64,000 bases of DNA, taken from positions 448 to 64,447 of the forward strand of contig JAJEAL010000080.1 of the NCBI GenBank assembly GCA_022822785.1. Direction: 5' to 3'. How positions within the stretch are numbered: position 1 is the stretch's first letter; the number at the start of each line of letters is the position of its first letter. This DNA is from Candidatus Poribacteria bacterium. Lineage in GTDB: Bacteria; Poribacteria; WGA-4E; PCPOR2b. Position numbers and translations under genes: made by a program. The notes beneath the pieces are model-generated. The model saw only the letters and a list, made by a program, of their open reading frames with translations. It was not told the DNA's origin and searched no databases. Of the stretch, positions 7,961 through 37,724 are shown in pieces.

Positions 7961-8042
7961 CGTTGAGCGTTGTAAGTGTTCGCAGAGGGCAAGAACGCAA
8001 GCGGTGCACTGAAGCCGGGATTTCTAGTATCCTCACTACCTA

Positions 8043-10586
8043 TTGAGTTGTACGCCTATGACACAGATCAAACATTTCACGGAAATTGACGATGCTGACC
8101 TGCCGCTGGTCGGTGGTAAAGGGTTAAATCTCGGCAAGTTGACAAGGGCGGGGTTTCTTGTGCCGCCCGGCTTCTGTCTGACAACCGACGCCTATCGCGG
8201 CGCTATTGAAACAATCAAGACGCACAGCAGCGAAACGGTCCAAACCGTTACGCTGCCGGAGTCGCTCCAAGCGGAAGTCTTAACGGCTTATAACCGGTTA
8301 GGGGCAGGTAGAGTTGCGGTGCGTTCCTCTGCTACGGCAGAGGATCTTCCCGATGCCAGTTTTGCCGGCCAACAGGATTCGTTCTTAAATGTAGATGGAG
8401 ACGCTGAACTGTTGGACAAGATTAAGTTGTGCTGGGCATCGCTATGGTCGGATCGTGCGATTGCTTACCGCCGTGACCACGGTATTGAGGAGACACAGCT
8501 GGCGATGGCGGTTGTTGTGCAGGTGATGATCGATGCTGAGGTTTCCGGTGTTATGTTTACCCGCAGCCCCACAGGAGGTGATGAACTCGTCATTGAATCA
8601 AACTGGGGGTTAGGTGAGTCCGTTGTGTCTGGCGAAGTTACGCCTGACCATTTTACGGTCTCACGCGAAACCGGTGCAGTTATCCGCGAGACTGTAGTTA
8701 CCAAGCGGAGGATGGTTGCACTCGAGGGAATGCAAACTGTACCAATCGGTCAAAGGGAGATTCCCAGTTTACAGCGTGGACGGATTGCCGAACTCAGCAA
8801 GATTGGTATGCGGGTGGAAGCGCTCTATAGCGCACCCCAAGACATCGAATGGGCGTACGCCGACGAGCAATTCCACTGCCTTCAGACACGTCCGATAACA
8901 ACGCTCACGGACGCAGCAGAGATTGAGCGGTTACGCCGTCAGGAAATTGAGACGCTCCAGCGGCGAGCTGATGAAGGCGGAACCGTGTGGAGTCGATACA
9001 ATCTGTCCGAGGTCCTACCCGCTCCGCTCCCCATGACCTGGGCAATCATGCAGGAATTTATGTCGGGACGAGGAGGATTTGGATTGACCTGCCGTGAGTT
9101 AGGATTCCTGCCTAGCCGTAGGTTCGATGAAGAGGGTATGCTAGATTTAATCTGTGGACGGCTCTACTTCAACTTAAGTCGGGAAGTGGAATTTAATTTC
9201 CATGGATTTCTGTTTGAACACGATTTTCAGCAGCTCAAGCGTGACCCACATAAGGCAATCTATCCGCAACCGACTCCAAACATCAAACGCAGTAACACCC
9301 TATTTTGGCTTAAGTTTCCTTACTATATCGTTAAAGCAATTACCGCTGAACTGAAACATCACAAAATTCGCAAAGATCTGGATCAGGTTCTGTTAAAAGA
9401 AATCTTTCCAACCTTCAAAGAATATGTCCAGGCTCAGAAACAGATTGCGCTTGAAAAATTGCCGGACGAACAGGTGATTGACAAATTCCGTGAGTGGCGC
9501 GAGAAAACGCTTAATGATTTTGCTAAGGAAGCGCTCAAGGCAACAGTGTTCGCACATTATGCTTATCAGCAGCTCGAAACTGTCCTGCAACACTGTTTTG
9601 GTGAAACTGAAGCAAGAGATCTCGCTAGATTGTTAATCACAGGGTTGGACGACGACCTGACTGTTGATGCTAATCTGAAAATGTGGGCCGTCGCACACGG
9701 GGAGCTCCCACTAGAAGATTTCTTGGGTAAGCATGGACATCGTTCCGTTGGTGAATTTGAGCTGGCACAGCCACGCTGGTGTGAAGATCCATCCTACGTT
9801 GAGCAGATTATCGCATCATTCCGCGCCAATCCTGATGCTAATCCGACGAAGCACCTGCAAGCTCAAGAGGCAGAGCGCGCGAAGGCAAGAAATAGATTAG
9901 CAAAATTGCCGACAAAAAAGGCAGCTGCATTTCGGAAAAAGATTGATAGCGCGCTTGAACTTACACAGCGGTACATGCCCTTTCGAGAGGCAGCAAAATT
10001 CTATCTCATGCTCGGTTACCAGCTGATTCGAAAGGCTTTATCGGAACTCGATCGACGCTACCAGCTTGATGGAGGCACCTTCTATCTAGTGCCCGATGAG
10101 TTGGCCCGGTTGATCCAGGGGGAAGACCTCCAACCGACAATCGCGGAGCGTAGAACAACACGAGCTCGGCTCTTAAAAATTGAACTGCCTAATGTCATCT
10201 ACAGCGATATCCTCAACCGTATTGGTGAACCTGAGGCGATTGAAGCGAAAGATGAGATACAAGGACTTGGGGTGTCAATTGGTGTTACCACCGGCGAGGC
10301 GTATGTACTACGAGATGTAACCGAGGCACAGATTGCTGGTAAAAATTATATCTTGGTCTGCCCGTCAACAGATCCGGGATGGACGCCGCTCTTCCTCCAC
10401 GCTGCTGGACTCGTGATGGAGTATGGAGGAATGCTGTCACACGGTGCTGTTGTTGCACGGGAATATGGTATCCCTGCAGTCGTTAATATTACCGCTGCAA
10501 CGCAACGCATCCAATCCGGGCAGCGGCTGCACGTTGACGGTGCACGAGGGGTCGTCTCAATTTTGACTGATGAATCTGTACCCTGA
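8043..10586 (+). CDS. PEP-utilising enzyme with rifampicin-phosphotransferase (RPH)-like architecture: N-terminal PPDK_N ATP-grasp, long central domain, C-terminal phosphohistidine swivel domain
   Basis: N-terminus LPLVGGKGLNLGKLTRAGFLVPPGFCLTTDAY (PPDK_N). C-terminus LVCPSTDPGWTPLFLHAAGLVMEYGGMLSHGAVVAREYGIPAVV (PEP-utilisers mobile domain). 847 aa with no TIM-barrel PEP-binding domain. Confidence 0.7.
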   Translation: MSCTPMTQIKHFTEIDDADLPLVGGKGLNLGKLTRAGFLVPPGFCLTTDAYRGAIETIKTHSSETVQTVTLPESLQAEVLTAYNRLGAGRVAVRSSATAEDLPDASFAGQQDSFLNVDGDAELLDKIKLCWASLWSDRAIAYRRDHGIEETQLAMAVVVQVMIDAEVSGVMFTRSPTGGDELVIESNWGLGESVVSGEVTPDHFTVSRETGAVIRETVVTKRRMVALEGMQTVPIGQREIPSLQRGRIAELSKIGMRVEALYSAPQDIEWAYADEQFHCLQTRPITTLTDAAEIERLRRQEIETLQRRADEGGTVWSRYNLSEVLPAPLPMTWAIMQEFMSGRGGFGLTCRELGFLPSRRFDEEGMLDLICGRLYFNLSREVEFNFHGFLFEHDFQQLKRDPHKAIYPQPTPNIKRSNTLFWLKFPYYIVKAITAELKHHKIRKDLDQVLLKEIFPTFKEYVQAQKQIALEKLPDEQVIDKFREWREKTLNDFAKEALKATVFAHYAYQQLETVLQHCFGETEARDLARLLITGLDDDLTVDANLKMWAVAHGELPLEDFLGKHGHRSVGEFELAQPRWCEDPSYVEQIIASFRANPDANPTKHLQAQEAERAKARNRLAKLPTKKAAAFRKKIDSALELTQRYMPFREAAKFYLMLGYQLIRKALSELDRRYQLDGGTFYLVPDELARLIQGEDLQPTIAERRTTRARLLKIELPNVIYSDILNRIGEPEAIEAKDEIQGLGVSIGVTTGEAYVLRDVTEAQIAGKNYILVCPSTDPGWTPLFLHAAGLVMEYGGMLSHGAVVAREYGIPAVVNITAATQRIQSGQRLHVDGARGVVSILTDESVP

Positions 10587-10668
10587 TTTTTCCATTTCTA
10601 ATTAATCCTTTTTCAATGATACTAGTCTGTCCCGACAATAAATTTCGATTGATTTACTGCAATCATAC

Positions 10669-10697
10669 TTGACAAACACTGCTAATCAGTGTAAACT
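10669..10697 (+). promoter_or_regulatory. sigma70-type promoter (TTGACA-17 bp-TAAACT) upstream of nadA
   Basis: ttgaca at 10669-10674, a 17-nt spacer, taaact at 10692-10697, about 130 nt before the nadA ATG. Confidence 0.4.
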
Positions 10698-10830
10698 CTA
10701 AAGTAACCCAACAAGCAATAAAGATTTCTCCAATGTTTTGGCGGCACGTCAAAAAGTCCTTTAGCACTAAGAAGCTCATATCAGAAATTCGAGACGGAAG
10801 ATGCTCCGACAGATTCAGGGGTGAAAAGAC

Positions 10831-11940
10831 ATGAATTCCCAACCAACAACACTCCAAGACAATATAGATAATGCAGAGCTCAGCGTTGAAAGTGTAAAAA
10901 AAGAGCTTTATAAAAGAAACCATCCAAGTTTAATGCCAATCGACATAGAAGCTCACGCTGAGACAGTGTATCAGATACTGAAACTCAAGCAGAAACACAA
11001 TGTGGTGATACTCGGCCATAATTACATGGAACCCCTCGTATTTGGCTTATCAACGAAAAGTGAGCAGGGCGATTCACTTGGATTAAGCATGTATGCCGCA
11101 AAGACCGATGCGCCATATATCCTCTTCAATGGGGTACCGTTCATGGCAGAAACTGCCAAAATCCTCAATCCTTCAAAAACCGTTCTCGCTGCTGATAAAA
11201 CTGCAGGCTGCTCTTTGGCGGATAATTTTGGGGCTGAGGAGGTGAGGAAGTTGAAAGCACTTTATCCAGGGATGCCTGTCATGATTTATATCAATAGCTA
11301 CGCTGATGCGAAGGCGGAATCGGATATTTGTTGCACCTCCGCCAATGCCGCCCAAATTGCCCGAGAAATGCCGGGGGATGAGATTCTTTTTGTCCCCGAT
11401 ATTTTCTTCGCAGAGAATTTGGAGGAAGAACTTAAAGGGACGAAAACTGTTATCTATCCTGGGAAAGGAAACCAAGAGAGGGGCGCGGTGTGTGAGGTGC
11501 ATGAAAAATTCCTGCTCTCGGACCTTTTAGCAATACGTGAGTCGTTTGACATCCCTAAAGGTCACTCCAAGCGAATACTTTATGCACACTGGGAATGTCG
11601 GCCTGAGGTGCTTCAGGAAGCCGATTTTTATGGTAGCACCAGCCAGATTGGGCAGGACATCGCGAAAAGGGTAGAGGAAAATCGGCTAGAACGCGCTTTT
11701 GTCGCTTCAGAATGTGAGTTGACTTCCAACTTGGCCCAAGAGTTTCCGACTGTGCAATTCTCGACCGCTTGTTCTGTAAGGTGTTCACATATGGCGAAAG
11801 TCACGCTTAGTAAGGTGCTTAATGTCTTGCAGACACTAGATAAAGGTGACGACTTGAGCCCTCACGAGGTCACGCTTACGCCCGATATTATCGAACGCGC
11901 AAGAACACCAATTGAACGGATGCTCGAGATGAGCGCGTAG
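10831..11940 (+). CDS. nadA: quinolinate synthase NadA
   Basis: VVILGHNYMEP ... ETAKILNP ... CSLADNF ... YINSYADAKAESDICCTSANA, a three-repeat NadA fold. 369 aa. Confidence 0.85.
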   Translation: MNSQPTTLQDNIDNAELSVESVKKELYKRNHPSLMPIDIEAHAETVYQILKLKQKHNVVILGHNYMEPLVFGLSTKSEQGDSLGLSMYAAKTDAPYILFNGVPFMAETAKILNPSKTVLAADKTAGCSLADNFGAEEVRKLKALYPGMPVMIYINSYADAKAESDICCTSANAAQIAREMPGDEILFVPDIFFAENLEEELKGTKTVIYPGKGNQERGAVCEVHEKFLLSDLLAIRESFDIPKGHSKRILYAHWECRPEVLQEADFYGSTSQIGQDIAKRVEENRLERAFVASECELTSNLAQEFPTVQFSTACSVRCSHMAKVTLSKVLNVLQTLDKGDDLSPHEVTLTPDIIERARTPIERMLEMSA

Positions 11941-13189: not shown

Positions 13190-14614
13190 TCATATTCTGT
13201 TCCTTGCTAGCCTTCTGGTATCTGGTTTTGTACAAAGCTCATATACGAGTTGTTCTAAAATGCACTCTGGATCTAATTGACTACTCTTGAGTTGTACATC
13301 CACCGCCAGTGTTTGCTCCAATCCGTGAATTAGCTCTTCTGTGCTAAAAAAAGGAATTGCTTGGATAACTTTATAGGCAGCATAAGGATTTTGTTTTAGC
13401 AGGTTGACTTGTGCTGTATTGGGTAGGCGATTGGACATTTTTGCGGCAAGCGGCTTGAAGACAGTATCTGCGAAGCTCTGGTAGCTTATTCGATCCACTG
13501 TCGGTTTTAACCCTCCCTGCTCTACGAGCAGTTTCGCTTGAAGTGTAAGTCTGATTTGCCGAGCGATGAGCGCGTTGACTTTAATCGGTGGTTCACCGCT
13601 TTCTAGCACGCTGTGGAGGCTGGACAACGCTTGTGAAACTGACCGTCTTCCAAGAGCATCTGTAAGTGCGAAAATATTGTCAAAACTGCTTTGGGCGATG
13701 ATAGTTTCGATATCTCGTTCGTCGATCCGTGTCTTTTCCCCAACAAAAGCGATTATCTTCTCGATTGCTTCAGCAATCAAGTGCATATCGTTTCCTGTCC
13801 GCTTCTGTAAAAGATTAAAGGCACTCGGCGAAATCCGCTTTCCAAATGTTTCCAATTTCCGCGATACGCCTTGGTAAATCCGATCTTGCTGATTCGACCT
13901 GCCGGGCTCTAACGGAGCAAATGAAACATATCTACCGACCCGACCAATCAATCTGACAAGGCGACTTCGACCATCAACGTTCCCTTTGACGGTAAAGATC
14001 AAAACGCTCGTTTTTGGCAATTCATCATCTAGCCACTCACTTAAGATTTCGGTATCGTCAGCTGCACCGGATATATGTTCGTAATCGTCAACTTGTGCAG
14101 TAATTTGTGGCAAGTTGTGGAGAAATTCGAGATCTTCGGGGCTCAAACCAGTCTCATTTTCCTCAACAAACTCGCTGACGGCAGCTCTAAAATCGTTATT
14201 CTCATCGACGATATCCTGTGCCGAAACCCCTAAAACTTTGGTCATCAACGCGATTGCCTTCCGTGGATTGCCCTCTTCGACAGCTTCAACAGCACTCTCT
14301 ATTATCTCCGGCGATGATGGTCCCTTCTGCCGCTTAAATACGGTTGCCTCGCTCACAACAACAACGCGCCAATCTGCCATCACCGGGTAGACTTCCACGG
14401 CACTGAGTATCTCACGAACGGACACCTCCGCACCATCAAGATGAGTTAGGTTAAAATCACGGGTCTCCGGTGACAGCAGGTTTTCAAGCACCTGCTTAAG
14501 TGTGCTCTCGACCAGAAACTGCTCTTCGCCGCACAGTAGGTAGACAGGACGAACCTTACCAGCTTGAATTTCCTTAACAATATTTGGTGTTGAAGATTGT
14601 GTTGATTGTCTCAT
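13190..14614 (-). CDS. holA: DNA polymerase III delta subunit HolA with a roughly 130-aa acidic insertion
   Basis: VRPVYLLCGEEQFLVE near the N-terminus, ISPSAFNLLQKRTGNDMHLIAEAIEKI in the middle, NIFALTDAL near the C-terminus. An extra acidic segment (EEGNPRK ... DDELPKT) separates the conserved blocks. The start is chosen at the internal Met (MRQSTQ); the ORF track runs to 14728. Confidence 0.6.
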   Translation of the reverse strand: MRQSTQSSTPNIVKEIQAGKVRPVYLLCGEEQFLVESTLKQVLENLLSPETRDFNLTHLDGAEVSVREILSAVEVYPVMADWRVVVVSEATVFKRQKGPSSPEIIESAVEAVEEGNPRKAIALMTKVLGVSAQDIVDENNDFRAAVSEFVEENETGLSPEDLEFLHNLPQITAQVDDYEHISGAADDTEILSEWLDDELPKTSVLIFTVKGNVDGRSRLVRLIGRVGRYVSFAPLEPGRSNQQDRIYQGVSRKLETFGKRISPSAFNLLQKRTGNDMHLIAEAIEKIIAFVGEKTRIDERDIETIIAQSSFDNIFALTDALGRRSVSQALSSLHSVLESGEPPIKVNALIARQIRLTLQAKLLVEQGGLKPTVDRISYQSFADTVFKPLAAKMSNRLPNTAQVNLLKQNPYAAYKVIQAIPFFSTEELIHGLEQTLAVDVQLKSSQLDPECILEQLVYELCTKPDTRRLARNRI

Positions 14615-14748
14615 GGATATGTAGATTAACGCTTTGCAGGATGGAGGCTGATTGAATGGTAAGGCGCTATCGGGAGGATCAACTCGGCATTGACTTTGAA
14701 TCCCGGTTACCTCCGAGTAAGTTGGCAAATGTCATAACCTAATGGGCA

Positions 14749-20328: not shown

Positions 20329-21141
20329 TTATGCAAACCTCAATTTCACATTGGATTGGGCGAGGTCGTACTTCACTGCGAATTTATAAAACTTCTGTAG
20401 TCCGGCAATTTCAGAATCACCGAGCTCATAAAAGATATGCTTGGTCAAATAATCTCGACAAAGCTGTTCCGGGAAACCGATTTTTTGGGATTCAATTCGG
20501 ACAATCTCAGAGATTTTTTTAATCCCATCTTCCTTTGCATTCAGAAGAGTTTGCGGAACTTGTCCTAACTCCACCTCTCCTCGGGCCACCCAGCACGCGT
20601 AGACAAACGGTAATCCTGTCAATTCACTCCATTCCGCCCCGAGATCTAAGGTATAATCTGTTGCACCGAGTCTTTTCAACGCTGTATCCCCAATCAATAG
20701 GACTGCATCCACATCGGCAGATCGTGGGTCGATAGTGGGTGGACAGGAATGAAATTCGGGGTAGACTCGATATTTTTCGGCAAGCACAATCTTCACGAGC
20801 GCACGAGATGAGCGCGAGCTTGTGTCAAGCGCAACACTACGGATTGCAGGAATCGGTACGCGACTGAGTAATTGGATGCTCAATACCGGGCCCCGCGAAC
20901 AGATTGAAATGTGCCGTATAATCCTATACCCACTCTCCGCTCGGAAATACTCAATGATTGGAATCAATCCAATATCAAGATTTCCGTCTCCTAATTCTGT
21001 TGCTAAACGACTTGGTACCGCTAGACTGAGTTTAATCTCATCGCTGCCGGGGAATTGGGGGACCTTCAAAAGGGGATAAATCAGTGGTTTCGTGTTCAGA
21101 TATGAAACCGCTCCAACTTTCACGCGGCTTTCCTGTGCCAT
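20329..21141 (-). CDS. mqnA: chorismate dehydratase MqnA (futalosine pathway, DUF178)
   Basis: VKVGAVSYLNTKPLIYPL is the MqnA/MqnD-family signature. 270 aa. It sits next to the radical-SAM mqn gene. Confidence 0.75.
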   Translation of the reverse strand: MAQESRVKVGAVSYLNTKPLIYPLLKVPQFPGSDEIKLSLAVPSRLATELGDGNLDIGLIPIIEYFRAESGYRIIRHISICSRGPVLSIQLLSRVPIPAIRSVALDTSSRSSRALVKIVLAEKYRVYPEFHSCPPTIDPRSADVDAVLLIGDTALKRLGATDYTLDLGAEWSELTGLPFVYACWVARGEVELGQVPQTLLNAKEDGIKKISEIVRIESQKIGFPEQLCRDYLTKHIFYELGDSEIAGLQKFYKFAVKYDLAQSNVKLRFA

Positions 21142-22283
21142 TGATTCCCTTCTCGGATAATTTCGTTATAGAGCGTATCGCGTTCAACGGGAATGCGACC
21201 TGCTTCCCCGATTACTTGGATAATTTCTTCTGCTGAAATGGCTTCCGGCGTGTCTGCCCCCGCCATATGCGTAATCTTCTCCTCCGTCACTGTACCATCG
21301 ATATCATCTGCACCAAAGCTCAGCGCAATTTGGGCTGTCTTCAGTCCAGTCATAATCCAATACACCTTGATGTGTGGGAAATTGTCAAGCAACAAGCGCG
21401 ACACAGCTATATTTTGCAGGTCAGTCAAGCCGGACGTGCTTGGTAGGTAATCCATTCGTGTGTTATCAGGATGGAACGCCAACGGAATAAAGGTGACGAA
21501 GCCGCCCGATTTGTCTTGTTGTTCACGAAGACGAATCAAATGATCTACGCGATCCTCGCTCGTTTCGAGGTGTCCATAGAGCATTGTCGCATTTGTTGAG
21601 ATACCGAGACGGTGTGCGATGTCATGCACCTCAAGCCATCCCTCCGCGCTCAGCTTGCCGGGACAGATTTTTTCCCGTGTCTCTTCCGCAAAGATTTCCG
21701 CCCCGCCGCCGGGTAGCGAATCTAGCCCTGCCTCGCGTAACGCAATCAAGACCTCCTCAATCGACATCTTGAATATCCGAGCGAAGTGGTGAATCTCGAC
21801 AGCTGTAAAAAACTTCAGATGAACCTGTGGCATCCGTCTCTTCAGTCCGCGGAGCATGTCGAGATAGTATTCAAACGGTAGCTTCGGGTGCAGTCCACCG
21901 ACGCTGTGAATCTCCGTGCAACCGTGGTCAATGGAATACATCGCCTTATCCAAAAATTCATCGACGCTCATCTCCCATGCCCCGTCGGTTTCTATATTCT
22001 TCCGTGCAAACGCGCAAAAGTGACAACGTGCGTGCAGGATACACACGTTTGAGTAGTCGATATGTTGATTGAAGTTGTAATAGGCGACATTTCCATTTTG
22101 TCGCTCCCGGACGATATTGGCGAGATAGCCAACGCCGTTAATATCCGGGCTTTCGTAGAGCCTTACCCCATCTTCAAAAGAGAGGCGCTCATCAGCGTGA
22201 ACTTTTTCGTAGATGGGGTGAAGCGTTGCGTCTGTTATTGGTAAAAGTCTTTCCATCGTTGCTCCTATTTCGTTTTTAATCAA
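21120..22283 (-). CDS. radical SAM menaquinone-biosynthesis enzyme of the MqnC/MqnE family (cyclic dehypoxanthinyl futalosine synthase or aminofutalosine synthase)
   Basis: GNVAYYNFNQHIDYSNVCILHARCHFCAF ... GGLHP ... TMLYGHLET. 387 aa. The cysteine spacing is CX5CX2C, confirmed from the DNA, not the usual CX3CX2C. Confidence 0.7.
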   Translation of the reverse strand: MIKNEIGATMERLLPITDATLHPIYEKVHADERLSFEDGVRLYESPDINGVGYLANIVRERQNGNVAYYNFNQHIDYSNVCILHARCHFCAFARKNIETDGAWEMSVDEFLDKAMYSIDHGCTEIHSVGGLHPKLPFEYYLDMLRGLKRRMPQVHLKFFTAVEIHHFARIFKMSIEEVLIALREAGLDSLPGGGAEIFAEETREKICPGKLSAEGWLEVHDIAHRLGISTNATMLYGHLETSEDRVDHLIRLREQQDKSGGFVTFIPLAFHPDNTRMDYLPSTSGLTDLQNIAVSRLLLDNFPHIKVYWIMTGLKTAQIALSFGADDIDGTVTEEKITHMAGADTPEAISAEEIIQVIGEAGRIPVERDTLYNEIIREGNQWHRKAA

Positions 22284-22383
22284 TTTCTAAATTTTTCAAA
22301 GTACTGATCAATCTCAGTCCGTAATTCAATGCCAACTTTTTCAAAACAATCCAATAAATCTTGATATGCGCCGTTTCCACCCG

Positions 22384-23976
22384 CTATTTTGACTTTAGAT
22401 GGAAGATACTTTCGGAGTACGCGCTTTTGTCCTTTTCTGTTCTGTTGAGAACAGGTCGTTTATATTGATTGACAATTCTCATTCCTGAACGTTCCGCAAT
22501 CGTTGGATACATATTGAACTTATCATTTGCTACCAGAAAAACATCATAATCTTGGACTAAGAATCTTTTACAATTCTGCAGCACTTCCGAAATACCTTTG
22601 ATATATCGCTCTCTAGCTTCTTTTCCCTTACCCTTGAAGAGCGGTCCAATTTCTAGCTCATCTTTTCGGTCAAATTCAAATAAATCGTAAGCATAGGCGT
22701 GTTGTTCGTGATAGTTGATGAGTCCAACATACGGCGGACTAGAGAAAATCCCTTTAATCTTCTGTTTTTTCACGAGTTGAGCAAAATCTGGGTTATCTGC
22801 TTTTAATGCCTTGATAATATCAATTGTCCGAGAATCTCCGGTCAGACAGGTTTGAAATGTGTCTGTCCTTAATTTATCAAACCGTACAAGGCGTTGAAGC
22901 GTATCTTGGCTGTATCGTTCCCACCAACTCAATATTGAAAATAGGGGTCTGCACATTTTACCATGTTTGGCACAGTAATAGACTGCCGTTACAGGTTCTT
23001 TCAAGGTTGCCAAATCTGCATGAGTTGTTGCCCGGCAAGTACGGATCGTTCGACTCAGAATAACCTGAATTACCCGCCGTGTTTCACGATTGTGGATATG
23101 TTTGACGCGCTCAAAGACAAGGTCAATTTCTTCTCTTACAGGCGATAAGTACCACATATCGAGGAAATTCTCTGATTTTCTTTGCCACAACTGGACTCCA
23201 TATTGGTTGATTAGTTGAAAGTATCTGAGTGAGAATTGGTCCTCTTTTTCTTTTCCATATTTCTCTTGATCAATCTGTCCCTGCCTGACTTGGTATTTGA
23301 AATCAGGAGACGGGAAATATTCATTATTAAACTCCTTCAGCTCTTCGGCGAGTTGTGCTTCAAATTGAGCGATATTGGATTTGCCGATAAACCGCTTCAA
23401 GGCGTTTGTGATGCTGTGAATTTCATTTTGTACATCAACAAGACTATGTTTTTCTATTTTAATGTTGCTTATGAGCGTGTTAAATGCAGAAATATCAACC
23501 CCGATAGCGTGCATTCCAAGTTCGTTAGCTTGTACTAGCGTTGTGCCGCTACCACAAAACGGATCAAGCACAATATCACCTTGTTTGAAACATACATCTT
23601 TTTTGAAATCATCTGTGTGATCATCTAAGAAGTATTCAACCAGTTGAGGGATGAATTTGCCTTTATATGGGTGGAGTCTATGGACATGTTTCGTCGTGTC
23701 GGCTTCTTTCAGATAATCAAATGACAGTCCCCAATTGATATCTTCGCCTAATTGTGCCTTCCAGTTGATTTCTCGGGTTCCCAGATATGAATGATAGTAT
23801 TTAATCAAATCTTGTTTTGAGACTCTAGTGGAACCATTGCTGTCATGTTTGCGGATTCGTCCATATTGAATCAGATAGGAAATGTTGGAAGCCGTCACAT
23901 TTTTTTTCGTATAGTCGGTTGCCCATTTACTGGCTTCAGGGATTGTCATTAAATCCGTATCTTCAATCATTGTCAA
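22384..23976 (-). CDS. DNA methyltransferase (N-4/N-6 family) with DPFCGSGTT and SPPY motifs, no partner restriction-enzyme gene nearby, and low GC
   Basis: DPFCGSGTT at about aa 140 and SPPYVGL at about aa 410. 530 aa. Local GC of about 40% against about 52% in flanking genes. Confidence 0.7.
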   Translation of the reverse strand: MTMIEDTDLMTIPEASKWATDYTKKNVTASNISYLIQYGRIRKHDSNGSTRVSKQDLIKYYHSYLGTREINWKAQLGEDINWGLSFDYLKEADTTKHVHRLHPYKGKFIPQLVEYFLDDHTDDFKKDVCFKQGDIVLDPFCGSGTTLVQANELGMHAIGVDISAFNTLISNIKIEKHSLVDVQNEIHSITNALKRFIGKSNIAQFEAQLAEELKEFNNEYFPSPDFKYQVRQGQIDQEKYGKEKEDQFSLRYFQLINQYGVQLWQRKSENFLDMWYLSPVREEIDLVFERVKHIHNRETRRVIQVILSRTIRTCRATTHADLATLKEPVTAVYYCAKHGKMCRPLFSILSWWERYSQDTLQRLVRFDKLRTDTFQTCLTGDSRTIDIIKALKADNPDFAQLVKKQKIKGIFSSPPYVGLINYHEQHAYAYDLFEFDRKDELEIGPLFKGKGKEARERYIKGISEVLQNCKRFLVQDYDVFLVANDKFNMYPTIAERSGMRIVNQYKRPVLNRTEKDKSAYSESIFHLKSK

Positions 23977-24146
23977 TTTACCTTTTCGTCAAGAATTCTA
24001 CATAGATTCCCATGATCGGATATTCAGTATTATAGCCCAGCCTATGCGACGGTGCAAGCGAATATTTCGTCTTGCTTGCGGCTTTCCTTTCTGGTAGACT
24101 TTCGGTGCTGTGCAATGCGCCTGTTTATTTTGTGAGGTAAGTTACA

Positions 24147-24947
24147 ATGGATTTAACACCAGCCCCTATTATCACACTGATGACCGATTTTGGGACAAGC
24201 GACCACTACGTCGGGGTCATGAAGGGTGTGATTCTAAAGATCAATCCGCAAGCTCAGGTTGTCGACATCACGCACGCTATTCCACCACAGGATATTAACG
24301 GTGCGGCGTTCCTGATTGATTCGGCATATAGCTACTTCCCGATGGGGACCATCCATGTGATAGTGGTAGACCCAGGGGTGGGCAGTAGCCGTCGTGCCCT
24401 CGTTTGCCAAACACGAACGGCTTACTTCGTCTGTCCAGACAATGGATTGCTAACCCATATCCTCCGTAATGAAGGATGGGCCCATACCGTGGCCGTGGAG
24501 AACTCCGCTTACGTTCTGCCGCGGGTGAGCAACACCTTTCACGGTCGGGACATCTTCGCCCCCGTCGCAGCACACCTTTCACGCGGCGTACCGATCGGCA
24601 CACTAGGAGACCCGGTTTCACAGCTCGTTCAACTCCCCCTCCCAAAACCTCAAGTGACGGAGAACACAATTGTTGGACAGGTCATTTGGATCGATTCCTT
24701 CGGCAATTTGGTCACAAATATTTCCCACAGAATATTGGGGGCGCTGGACGGACGAAACGATATTGTTGTCCGTGCGGGGAGCGCAGAGATCCATCGTCTC
24801 AACCGCTCGTACGCTGAATCGGCAGTCGGTGAGGCGTTAGCAATCATCGGCAGTTCTAATCGACTGGAAATCTCAATTAATCAAGGGGATGCAGCACAAA
24901 TCCTCGGACTGAAGCGCGGCGATACAATCACAATCTGTGCGACATAA
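24147..24947 (+). CDS. DUF62 family SAM hydroxide adenosyltransferase-like protein (cytoplasmic paralog)
   Basis: IITLMTDFGTSDHYVGVMKG ... VVDPGVGSSRRALV ... HGRDIFAPVAAHL. 266 aa, no signal peptide. Confidence 0.8.
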   Translation: MDLTPAPIITLMTDFGTSDHYVGVMKGVILKINPQAQVVDITHAIPPQDINGAAFLIDSAYSYFPMGTIHVIVVDPGVGSSRRALVCQTRTAYFVCPDNGLLTHILRNEGWAHTVAVENSAYVLPRVSNTFHGRDIFAPVAAHLSRGVPIGTLGDPVSQLVQLPLPKPQVTENTIVGQVIWIDSFGNLVTNISHRILGALDGRNDIVVRAGSAEIHRLNRSYAESAVGEALAIIGSSNRLEISINQGDAAQILGLKRGDTITICAT

Positions 24948-36884: not shown

Positions 36885-37724
36885 GTGCAATTTTCATCAC
36901 TTCAATTTTCTAATCGGTTTAAAAACCGGCTACTTCCAGTACCCGACGATTCTTCTGGCTATGTTGGGCGGTATTTAATTATTGGCATAACATGTATCAT
37001 TGGACTACTTTTTATTCATTATTTGACAGCACGGGTCGGACTGTTTCGTGTGAAGCGGATTTCTGTTTCCGGTAATGAACATTATACACAAAAAGAGGTG
37101 ATTGCCGCTCTAGATTTAAGATTTCGACAAAGTGATGTGCATACCATTTCAGTGCCTGCAATTGAAAAACGGCTGAAGCAAAAACTTAGTTACATTAAAC
37201 AAGCACACATCTCAAAAAACATCTTGAAACGTTCATTAACGCTTGAGATAACTGAAAGAGAACCGGTCGCATTACTAAAATATCCTGAGGATAGTCACAT
37301 TCCCTTTGTATTAGTCGATTTTGAAGGATATGTTCTGGAACATTTACCGGCACTGCCAGCTTCCAGTTCAATGGTTGAGATTGTCAGTGCTGGACAGCAA
37401 GTTCCCGACGTGGGAGATCGAATCGGTTCTGATACTGTTCAACTTGCCTTGGAAGTGCTAAATTTAGCGCTGAGTTTGGCACCGGAAATTGTTTCCACGC
37501 TACAAACAATTGATGCGAATCAACCAGATAAAATTGTTCTCGAATTTAGTAATATTCCTATAGCATGGATTTCATCGGACTTGATTAAAACTGGCATTTA
37601 TCATATTAATTTACTCATAAGACATCAAGCGATGCTTATCAATGAAGGAAAACATATTTCAAATCCTCTGAATGGCTATTTGGACGCTAGGTTCGAGGAC
37701 GCTATATATTGGGGAGGGCAATAA
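36885..37724 (+). CDS. ftsQ: cell division protein FtsQ (POTRA domain)
   Basis: GTG start. Short N-terminus, one TM helix (YLIIGITCIIGLLFIHYL), then FRVKRISVSGNEHYTQKEVIAA as POTRA. 279 aa. Confidence 0.7.
   Translation: MQFSSLQFSNRFKNRLLPVPDDSSGYVGRYLIIGITCIIGLLFIHYLTARVGLFRVKRISVSGNEHYTQKEVIAALDLRFRQSDVHTISVPAIEKRLKQKLSYIKQAHISKNILKRSLTLEITEREPVALLKYPEDSHIPFVLVDFEGYVLEHLPALPASSSMVEIVSAGQQVPDVGDRIGSDTVQLALEVLNLALSLAPEIVSTLQTIDANQPDKIVLEFSNIPIAWISSDLIKTGIYHINLLIRHQAMLINEGKHISNPLNGYLDARFEDAIYWGGQ

Follow-up and report, generated by a model that had tools for sequence, protein, structure and literature searches.

The window analyzed here is a stretch of 64,000 nucleotides (64 kb) from Candidatus Poribacteria bacterium (assembly GCA_022822785.1, contig JAJEAL010000080.1), and all positions are given in its own numbering. 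At 22384..23970, on the minus strand, lies the gene of an orphan type II DNA amino-methyltransferase (MTase) of 528 amino acids (aa) plus stop. It would be the surviving half of a restriction–modification (RM) system that has lost its restriction endonuclease (REase) by deletion. An earlier note, made from the sequence alone, had described a 530-aa open reading frame (ORF) at 22384–23976; that frame is present, but its TTG start at 23976 is wrong, and alignment of homologs places the start at ATG 23970 (MIEDTDL...), which they share. The two motifs quoted in that note are both found in the translation, namely motif I for S-adenosylmethionine (AdoMet) binding, DPFCGSGTT, at 23539..23565 (minus strand, aa 136–144) and the catalytic motif IV, SPPY, at 22729..22740 (minus strand, aa 411–414). 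Each is invariant in a 32-sequence alignment. The protein matches Pfam PF01555 (N6_N4_Mtase) with 57 bits (cut-off 26.7, E = 3.4e-15) and the REBASE-derived PADLOC model MTase_II PDLC03249 with E = 1.6e-240, where aa 6–526 align on positions 14–538 of a profile of 541.

The spacer of ~100 bp between the MTase stop (22384) and the next gene, mqnE, is filled by the 3′ remnant of an REase gene of the PF09520 (TdeIII/HinfI) family. This stump, at 22280..22381 on the minus strand, consists of 33 codons (GGNGAYQDLLDCFEKVGIELRTEIDQYFEKFRN) followed by a TGA stop. In a tblastn search of the whole window, residues 227–258 of a 259-aa REase from Chloroflexi (locus L009, itself matching PF09520 with E = 9e-90) align with 22381..22286 on the minus strand at 69% identity (E = 7e-11). 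The deletion junction is seen by nucleotide alignment to the intact REase genes of three relatives (L018, L038, and L022): everything from 2 nt past the MTase stop to about REase codon 226 is gone, or ~690 bp. With REases of both known subtypes (see below) as queries against all 64 kb, the stump alone is found and no second PF09520 match, and the window holds no intact REase, specificity subunit, or mobility gene. The flanks of the cassette carry short direct repeats at chance level alone, and the island contains no further ORFs, mobility genes included. Judged on the 64-kb window of a genome of ~6 Mb, the MTase is a true orphan locally. The earlier note had reported no REase within 5 kb on either side; this holds for an intact gene, but the cognate REase that it might have overlooked is there, as a dead remnant of 33 codons at 22280–22381. 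Among the origins that it listed, the remnant of an RM system is the right one, by the REase stump and by the intact partner genes in relatives.

That the MTase belongs to an RM pair is best seen outside the Poribacteria. More than 8000 homologs were scored, and the best 120 of them (67–92% identical) come from Poribacteria, Cyanobacteria, Brocadia/Kuenenia, Chloroflexi, Elusimicrobia, Nanoarchaeota, and others. The family extends across phyla at 63–75% aa identity (Cyanobacteria, Brocadia, Elusimicrobia, Bacteroidota, archaea, and others), a spread that makes a foreign origin of the MTase a reasonable suggestion. A few copies occur on viral contigs; the plasmid collection gives no close match, with at best 33% of the protein covered at 28% identity. 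In Brocadia (L003-8) and Chloroflexi (L009-14), with homologs 63–71% identical, a PF09520 REase follows the MTase within ~10–25 bp, and almost all of the 56 non-Poribacteria species representatives have such an REase directly after the MTase. The partner REases are of two subtypes, of ~259 and ~347 aa. They match PF09520 with E = 4e-58 to 3e-90, and those of the Poribacteria relatives with ~1e-90 (the family is named "RE_TdeIII, type II restriction endonuclease" in the Pfam copy used and "HinfI" in contig annotation). Since the REase stands directly after the MTase across phyla, the MTase is the modification component of a type II RM cassette of two genes. Both halves belong to families already described, the MTase in REBASE-derived models and the PF09520 REase in Pfam; in NCBIfam, no REase model was found and the MTase matches are marginal only.

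Within the Poribacteria, 24 species representatives found by a scan of the genome collection carry the MTase, at 79–93% aa identity; together with the window they make 25 loci. The REase is plainly intact in 12 of these 25 (258–265 aa, starting 19 bp past the MTase stop). In L037, the REase is intact and the MTase (8001–9600 of that locus) is frameshifted near codon 109. This frameshift may be a long-read assembly error, and the combination would otherwise look lethal. In L015, the closest relative of the window (93% MTase identity), the REase is disrupted N-terminally by one additional base within a run of A near codon 20 (~9650–9700 of that locus), leaving a 227-aa ORF, which could be early inactivation, phase variation, or a sequencing error. 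The REase is lost in 11 of the 25 loci, the window among them, and the losses fall into at least seven distinct junction classes. Beside that of the window, the junction of L016 lies inside the MTase 3′ end, with REase codons 221–258 kept, and in L026 the first ~12 REase codons are fused to codon ~198. A group of four (L017, L020, L023, and L025) has REase codons 1–218 swapped for a common unrelated filler of ~370 bp. About the last 10 REase codons remain in L057 and, with a junction of their own, in L027 and L039. In L034, finally, REase codons 238–258 remain, the rest being replaced by an ApaLI-like RM pair. Each loss keeps at least the last 10 REase codons adjoining mqnE. Junctions of this diversity point to at least seven independent inactivations of the REase.

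The L034 insert (9762–11642 of that locus) encodes a beta-class PF01555 methylase of 394 aa together with an REase that resembles ApaLI (PF09499, E = 3e-93), and this second RM cassette sits between the conserved MTase and a 21-codon stump of the old REase. Here, one RM system has disrupted another. In L025, a further insertion of ~190 bp (~10090–10280) contains a long perfect hairpin (GTAGGGAACGCAGATCTGCGTTCCCTAC) and is possibly a small repeat element. A 99-aa ORF after the MTase (L002/L017, ~9600–9965) was considered as a small REase; it has no family match, lies within the filler shared by the four lineages, and is treated as non-coding.

The locus is an old one. The MTase lies downstream of a divergent DUF62 gene in all 24 representatives, and upstream of mqnE and an MqnA/D-family gene in all loci of the clade but L024, where the flank gives no mqnE match. 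This synteny holds even where the DUF62 and MqnA/D-family proteins drop to 60–65% identity. Distances between MTases follow those between flanks (Spearman 0.61 for nonsynonymous divergence, dN, and 0.46 for synonymous divergence, dS; p <= 4e-7). On the other hand, a metagenome scan with MqnE finds related lineages free of the cassette (L097, L098, L102, and L104-110; MqnE 72–85% identical), with the layout DUF62-[sugar-phosphate isomerase-like gene]-mqnE or pdxS-pdxT-mqnE. Absence of the MTase from the locus is limited to more distant or other lineages. Synteny, correlated distances, and cassette-free relatives together argue for a single acquisition, as a pair, by the ancestor of the Poribacteria clade, followed by vertical descent. 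The earlier note had read the gene as a laterally acquired solitary MTase. It is solitary now and a foreign origin is reasonable, but it arrived as an RM pair, is syntenic in 24 species, and has a low G + C content (GC) that is stable among them. The comparison with relatives for a lost REase, which that note proposed, has been made, and 12 species keep the REase intact. The dS of the MTase is ~0.7 times that of the flanks (median 0.52 vs. 0.71). This lower dS, together with the placement of L021 (see below), points to constraint on synonymous sites, recombination among Poribacteria alleles, or both.

The base composition of the MTase gene, which the earlier note had given as ~40% GC and below that of the neighbors, is indeed low when properly computed. 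Its GC is 0.396, and 50 ORFs of the window average 0.50 (standard deviation, sd, 0.037; z = -2.8); GC at third codon positions (GC3) is 0.382 vs. 0.51 (sd 0.063). The drop is confined to ~22250–24000 in the window. A raw ranking by per-codon Kullback–Leibler (KL) divergence put the MTase in mid-table; short genes inflate this measure, and a simulation matched to the gene's own aa composition and length was used instead as the null. Under it, synonymous GC3 is 0.364 vs. an expected 0.482 ± 0.022 (z = -5.3) and the codon-usage G statistic has z = 4.9, whereas mqnE, DUF62, and purH do not deviate. The residues F, Y, M, I, N, and K make up 32% of the MTase vs. 23 ± 3% elsewhere, and the low GC is in part protein-driven. 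A gene for an FtsQ-type POTRA protein (PF08478) at 36885–37724 on the plus strand (GC 0.39, GC3 0.30, synonymous GC3 z = -6.9) is more deviant in composition than the MTase. The gene at 13190–14728 (minus strand) is also shifted toward A and T at synonymous sites (z = -3.0). Because a core ftsQ-like gene exceeds the MTase in this respect, composition alone is a weak sign of foreignness in this genome.

The low GC is moreover shared. In ~18 close Poribacteria species, separated by dS of 0.5–1.2, the MTase has a GC of 0.385–0.40 with flanks at ~0.50, and in the deeper branches of the Poribacteria the MTase rises to 0.43–0.47. Constancy over such divergence makes the low GC a stable, clade-wide property of the MTase and not a timestamp of its arrival. 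It is due partly to a highly conserved protein rich in AT-codon residues and partly to a GC3 that has stayed low without drifting to that of the host.

The orphan protein has the marks of a maintained enzyme. Of the 176 positions at which 31 diverse homologs do not vary, the window MTase departs from none. Over the 133 columns invariant in 56 non-Poribacteria sequences, the REase-less lineages deviate at 1–3 positions and the RM-intact ones at 0–2; 10 of the 11 lineages with the REase reduced to a stump, lost, or replaced retain a full-length MTase ORF. Pairs of orphan MTases give a dN/dS of 0.081 and pairs from RM-intact lineages one of 0.089 (mqnE has 0.03–0.06, the MqnA/D-family gene 0.12, and DUF62 0.16); within the four lineages with the filler allele it is 0.079–0.081 at dS of 0.2–0.67. 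On balance, the MTase appears to have remained under purifying selection after loss of the REase, although retention is not absolute (see L039 below), and the window MTase is probably still active.

In the protein, the usual order of beta-class motifs (motif IV N-terminal, motif I C-terminal, the whole profile matched) is not observed. Positions 114–213 of the PF01555 profile, the C-terminal half with the motif X/I block, match aa 52–162 of the MTase, and the C-terminal part of the MTase (GDS...SPPY...) weakly matches profile positions 1–74 (E = 0.04–0.06), so that motif IV comes ~270 aa after motif I. Since the end of the profile matches near the N-terminus and its start near the C-terminus, the MTase is circularly permuted relative to beta-class PF01555 enzymes, with an alpha-like order. 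Between the two halves, the alignment and the secondary structure of an AlphaFold2 (AF2) model show an insert of ~200 aa, mostly helical. It carries the family-invariant residues C312, H317, C333, H336, C340, and C375 (~22846–23037, minus strand; aa 312–375), a cluster in the target-recognition region that may bind zinc. At the N-terminus, aa ~5–62 (23785..23958, minus strand) form, in the AF2 model, a winged-helix-like beta-alpha-alpha-beta-beta-alpha domain conserved in the whole family (TSNISYLIQYGR). Its predicted local distance difference test (pLDDT) values are 64–87, and it matches HTH_17 weakly, below threshold (E = 0.12). This domain may bind DNA or act in autoregulation. The best sequence matches in the PDB are beta-class N4-cytosine or N6-adenine enzymes over just 34 residues, with the rotifer N4CMT structures 8s9m and 8s9n at the top.

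In N4-cytosine methyltransferases, motif IV typically reads SPPY. From this motif, the alpha-like motif order, and the family of the REase, the best guess for the target, a tentative one, is N4-methylcytosine (m4C) in GGNCC, with GANTC (HinfI-like) as an alternative; an alpha-class m4C enzyme for GGNCC, M.TpsD3V, is documented (PMC5578853). Palindrome avoidance was pooled over ~0.8 Mb of RM-carrying loci vs. 0.55 Mb of controls. In the non-Poribacteria carriers, GGNCC is depleted (observed over expected, O/E, 0.65 and 0.54 vs. 0.86 in controls). GATATC is depleted in the RM-intact sets but not in the Poribacteria orphans (0.65, 0.68, and 0.52 vs. 0.89), a difference that is not significant after multiple testing. 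In the window itself, O/E is 0.40 for GGCC, 0.39 for CCWGG, and 0.57 for GATC, with similar values in the Poribacteria loci L015-L057, with or without REase. Such under-representation of palindromes suggests long-standing pressure from other RM systems.

Upstream of the MTase, at 24029..24059 on the minus strand, there is a promoter-like element, GCTTGCAC-N15-GCTATAAT (TTGCAC, a 17-nt spacer, TATAAT). By alignment and pattern scan, every one of the 25 Poribacteria loci has it as GAAATATTCGCTTGCAC-N17-GGGCTATAATAC, within an intergenic region that otherwise varies among them, and the upstream sequences of the non-Poribacteria homologs are unrelated. The consensus promoter scan did not call this element, TTGCAC having three of the six positions of TTGACA. 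Similar elements, TTG(C/A)AC-N17-GGGCTATAAT, head the pdxS-pdxT-mqnE operon in RM-less lineages, which indicates a strong promoter of host type, not brought by the cassette. The conserved element was also considered as the ancestral mqnE promoter and rejected in this role, as it is of a general strong Poribacteria type and not specific to the locus. A near-palindrome, CGAAATATTCG, abuts the -35 hexamer, and one might speculate that, together with the N-terminal domain, it serves autoregulation of the MTase.

Downstream of the stump comes mqnE (aminofutalosine synthase) at 21120..22256 on the minus strand. The earlier note had taken this gene for mqnC; TIGR03700 identifies it as mqnE with 511 bits, above its cut-off, and the MqnC model gives 381 bits, below its own. 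It starts at ATG 22256, 24 nt past the stop of the REase remnant and with an AGGAG ribosome-binding site, and encodes 378 aa, as in the gene calls of L001 and L002. A start at TTG 22283, the mechanical ORF that overlaps the REase stump, is rejected, the ATG being the one that agrees with the relatives' gene calls. The terminator scan gives no terminator-like site on the minus strand between the MTase and mqnE. Because of this, and of the short distance from the remnant stop to the mqnE start with its AGGAG, co-transcription of the MTase with mqnE is likely. On the other side, the neighbor had been correctly named DUF62: it is an S-adenosylmethionine (SAM) hydroxide adenosyltransferase gene of the (R)-SAM hydrolase family (SAM_HAT) at 24147..24947 on the plus strand (PF01887, PF20257), divergent from the MTase and the conserved upstream border of the locus.

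We propose the following history. A type II RM cassette would have entered the ancestor of the Poribacteria clade between the divergent DUF62 gene and mqnE and would then have been inherited vertically. In the lineage of the window, a deletion of ~690 bp, from 2 nt past the MTase stop to about codon 226, would have removed the REase and left 33 codons, and other lineages would have lost the REase independently. The conserved promoter of sigma-70 type presumably drives the MTase, which would share its transcript with mqnE and is most likely active as a solitary enzyme, modifying one short palindrome wherever it occurs in the chromosome. It may be kept because it shields the DNA from endonucleases of like specificity, whether incoming or resident, or because it has a regulatory, epigenetic role. 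The core of this history, that the MTase is an orphan left by deletion of a PF09520 REase at an old, vertically inherited locus, is given a probability of roughly 0.85.

Several points weigh against parts of this history. Retention of the MTase fails in L039, which has lost the REase: its MTase (8001–9620 of that locus) is a pseudogene, interrupted by an in-frame stop at codon 180 and broken at five invariant residues, one of them in motif I (D136N). The pairwise dN/dS values include the time before REase loss, and they are further blurred by recombination at the locus, since the MTase of L021, with an intact REase, is closer to those of L017 and L023 than is that of L020, and the lineages with a common loss event are thus not cleanly monophyletic for this gene. 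The AF2 model of the whole MTase is moderate (pLDDT 70), and Foldseek, used for fold search, gives only weak, generic matches to Rossmann methyltransferases. As to the target, GGNCC would be the site cut by TdeIII, following the Pfam/REBASE description. Avoidance singled out no site, as the carriers avoid many (GGCC, GATC, CCWGG, ACGT, and others), and GGNCC itself is not depleted in the Poribacteria (O/E 0.86–0.91).

The low GC (0.396 vs. 0.50) and deviant synonymous usage, with a family present in many phyla at 63–75% identity and a few copies on viral contigs, are what one would expect of a solitary MTase recently acquired by horizontal transfer, with the low GC as the mark of its arrival. 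Yet the same locus is found in 24 species with flanks at dS from 0.5 to >1, the low GC is identical in ~18 of them, and the gene came with an REase (the remnant in the window, the 12 intact relatives), with no mobility gene or flanking direct repeat found; recent transfer is thus the least credible of the readings. If the MTase is instead a non-functional relic in which disabling mutations have not yet accumulated since REase loss, the fate of L039, with its stop codon and broken invariant residues including D136N, is a precedent. In the window protein, however, all 176 invariant residues are intact, 10 of the 11 REase-less lineages are full-length with as few deviations as the RM-intact ones, dN/dS is ~0.08 in orphan pairs, and the promoter is conserved, so that we regard a relic as improbable. 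Selection on the DNA and not on the protein is harder still to accept: the MTase would be kept as promoter and 5′ transcript part of an essential mqnE operon, which would agree with the conserved promoter upstream, the lack of a terminator before mqnE, and deletions that spare at least the last 10 REase codons. DNA selected as a spacer would show neither a dN/dS of 0.08 nor intact catalytic motifs, and in-frame deletions in the MTase would be tolerated, of which none is seen. We consider this reading very unlikely.

Two further readings grant the MTase a function and differ from one another in what that function would be. It may be kept by RM addiction, as protection from another endonuclease, encoded elsewhere in the genome, that cuts at the same site. 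Sponge symbionts are rich in RM systems (PMC5099237), the window avoids GGCC (0.40), CCWGG (0.39), and GATC (0.57), and only 64 kb of ~6 Mb is visible. No second PF09520 match is present in the window, however, the data give no other hint of such a gene, and the same arrangement would have to hold in each independent REase-less lineage, which leaves this explanation with a small share of the probability. Alternatively, the MTase may have been domesticated as a clade-wide m4C epigenetic regulator or genome-marking enzyme tied to the mqnE unit, no longer a leftover of defence. It would stand at the head of that unit behind a strongly conserved promoter of host type, be selected as strongly as its housekeeping neighbors with or without a surviving REase, and carry its anomalous composition over dS > 1. 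On this view, selection would have discarded the toxic member of the pair each time an REase was deleted. We hold domestication to be possible but doubtful.

Decay of an RM system in which the MTase outlives the nuclease is a textbook outcome and a well-known route. What is specific here is that the origin can be read from a 33-codon stump, at an ancient syntenic locus of an uncultured clade, in a gene with un-ameliorated low GC. This low GC is no evidence of recent transfer, a caution for genome scans. In ~25 uncultured sponge-symbiont species, the one locus displays at least seven REase losses, a case in which another RM system took the place of the REase, and an MTase pseudogene; this series is a clean natural one in which to ask why orphan methylases persist. 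The MTase family itself is large, with permuted motif order, no close solved structure, and no published specificity found.

Among known systems, the nearest through the REase is the TdeIII RM system of Treponema denticola (MTase TDE0909, REase TDE0911), with a homolog in Helicobacter pylori PeCan4 (PMC12878829, PMC8265222, PMC3467074). The likeness is in the REase family (PF09520), the two-gene type II M-R layout, and the documented horizontal spread. The window differs in that its REase is cut to 33 codons, and its family in that M and R are directly adjacent, whereas the locus tags of T. denticola suggest a gene between the two. M.TpsD3V of Thioflexothrix psekupsii D3 ("type II alpha"; PMC5578853), compared by description only, has the combination predicted here, an m4C enzyme of alpha order for GGNCC. 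With the beta-class PF01555 enzymes (M.PvuII, M.RsrI, M.MboIIA, and CcrM), the window MTase shares the HP..K...DPFxGSGTT and (S/D)PPY blocks; it differs by the reversed order of the two halves, the helical insert of ~200 aa, and the added winged-helix-like N-terminal domain of ~60 aa. Orphan MTases arise from RM systems by endonuclease loss, and conserved orphans include Dam and CcrM. Like these, the window MTase lacks a partner REase, is conserved within its clade under purifying selection, and stands among housekeeping genes of the chromosome. Two differences set it apart: retention is not universal, as the pseudogene of L039 demonstrates, and its origin is still visible, in the REase stump next to it and in the intact sister loci.

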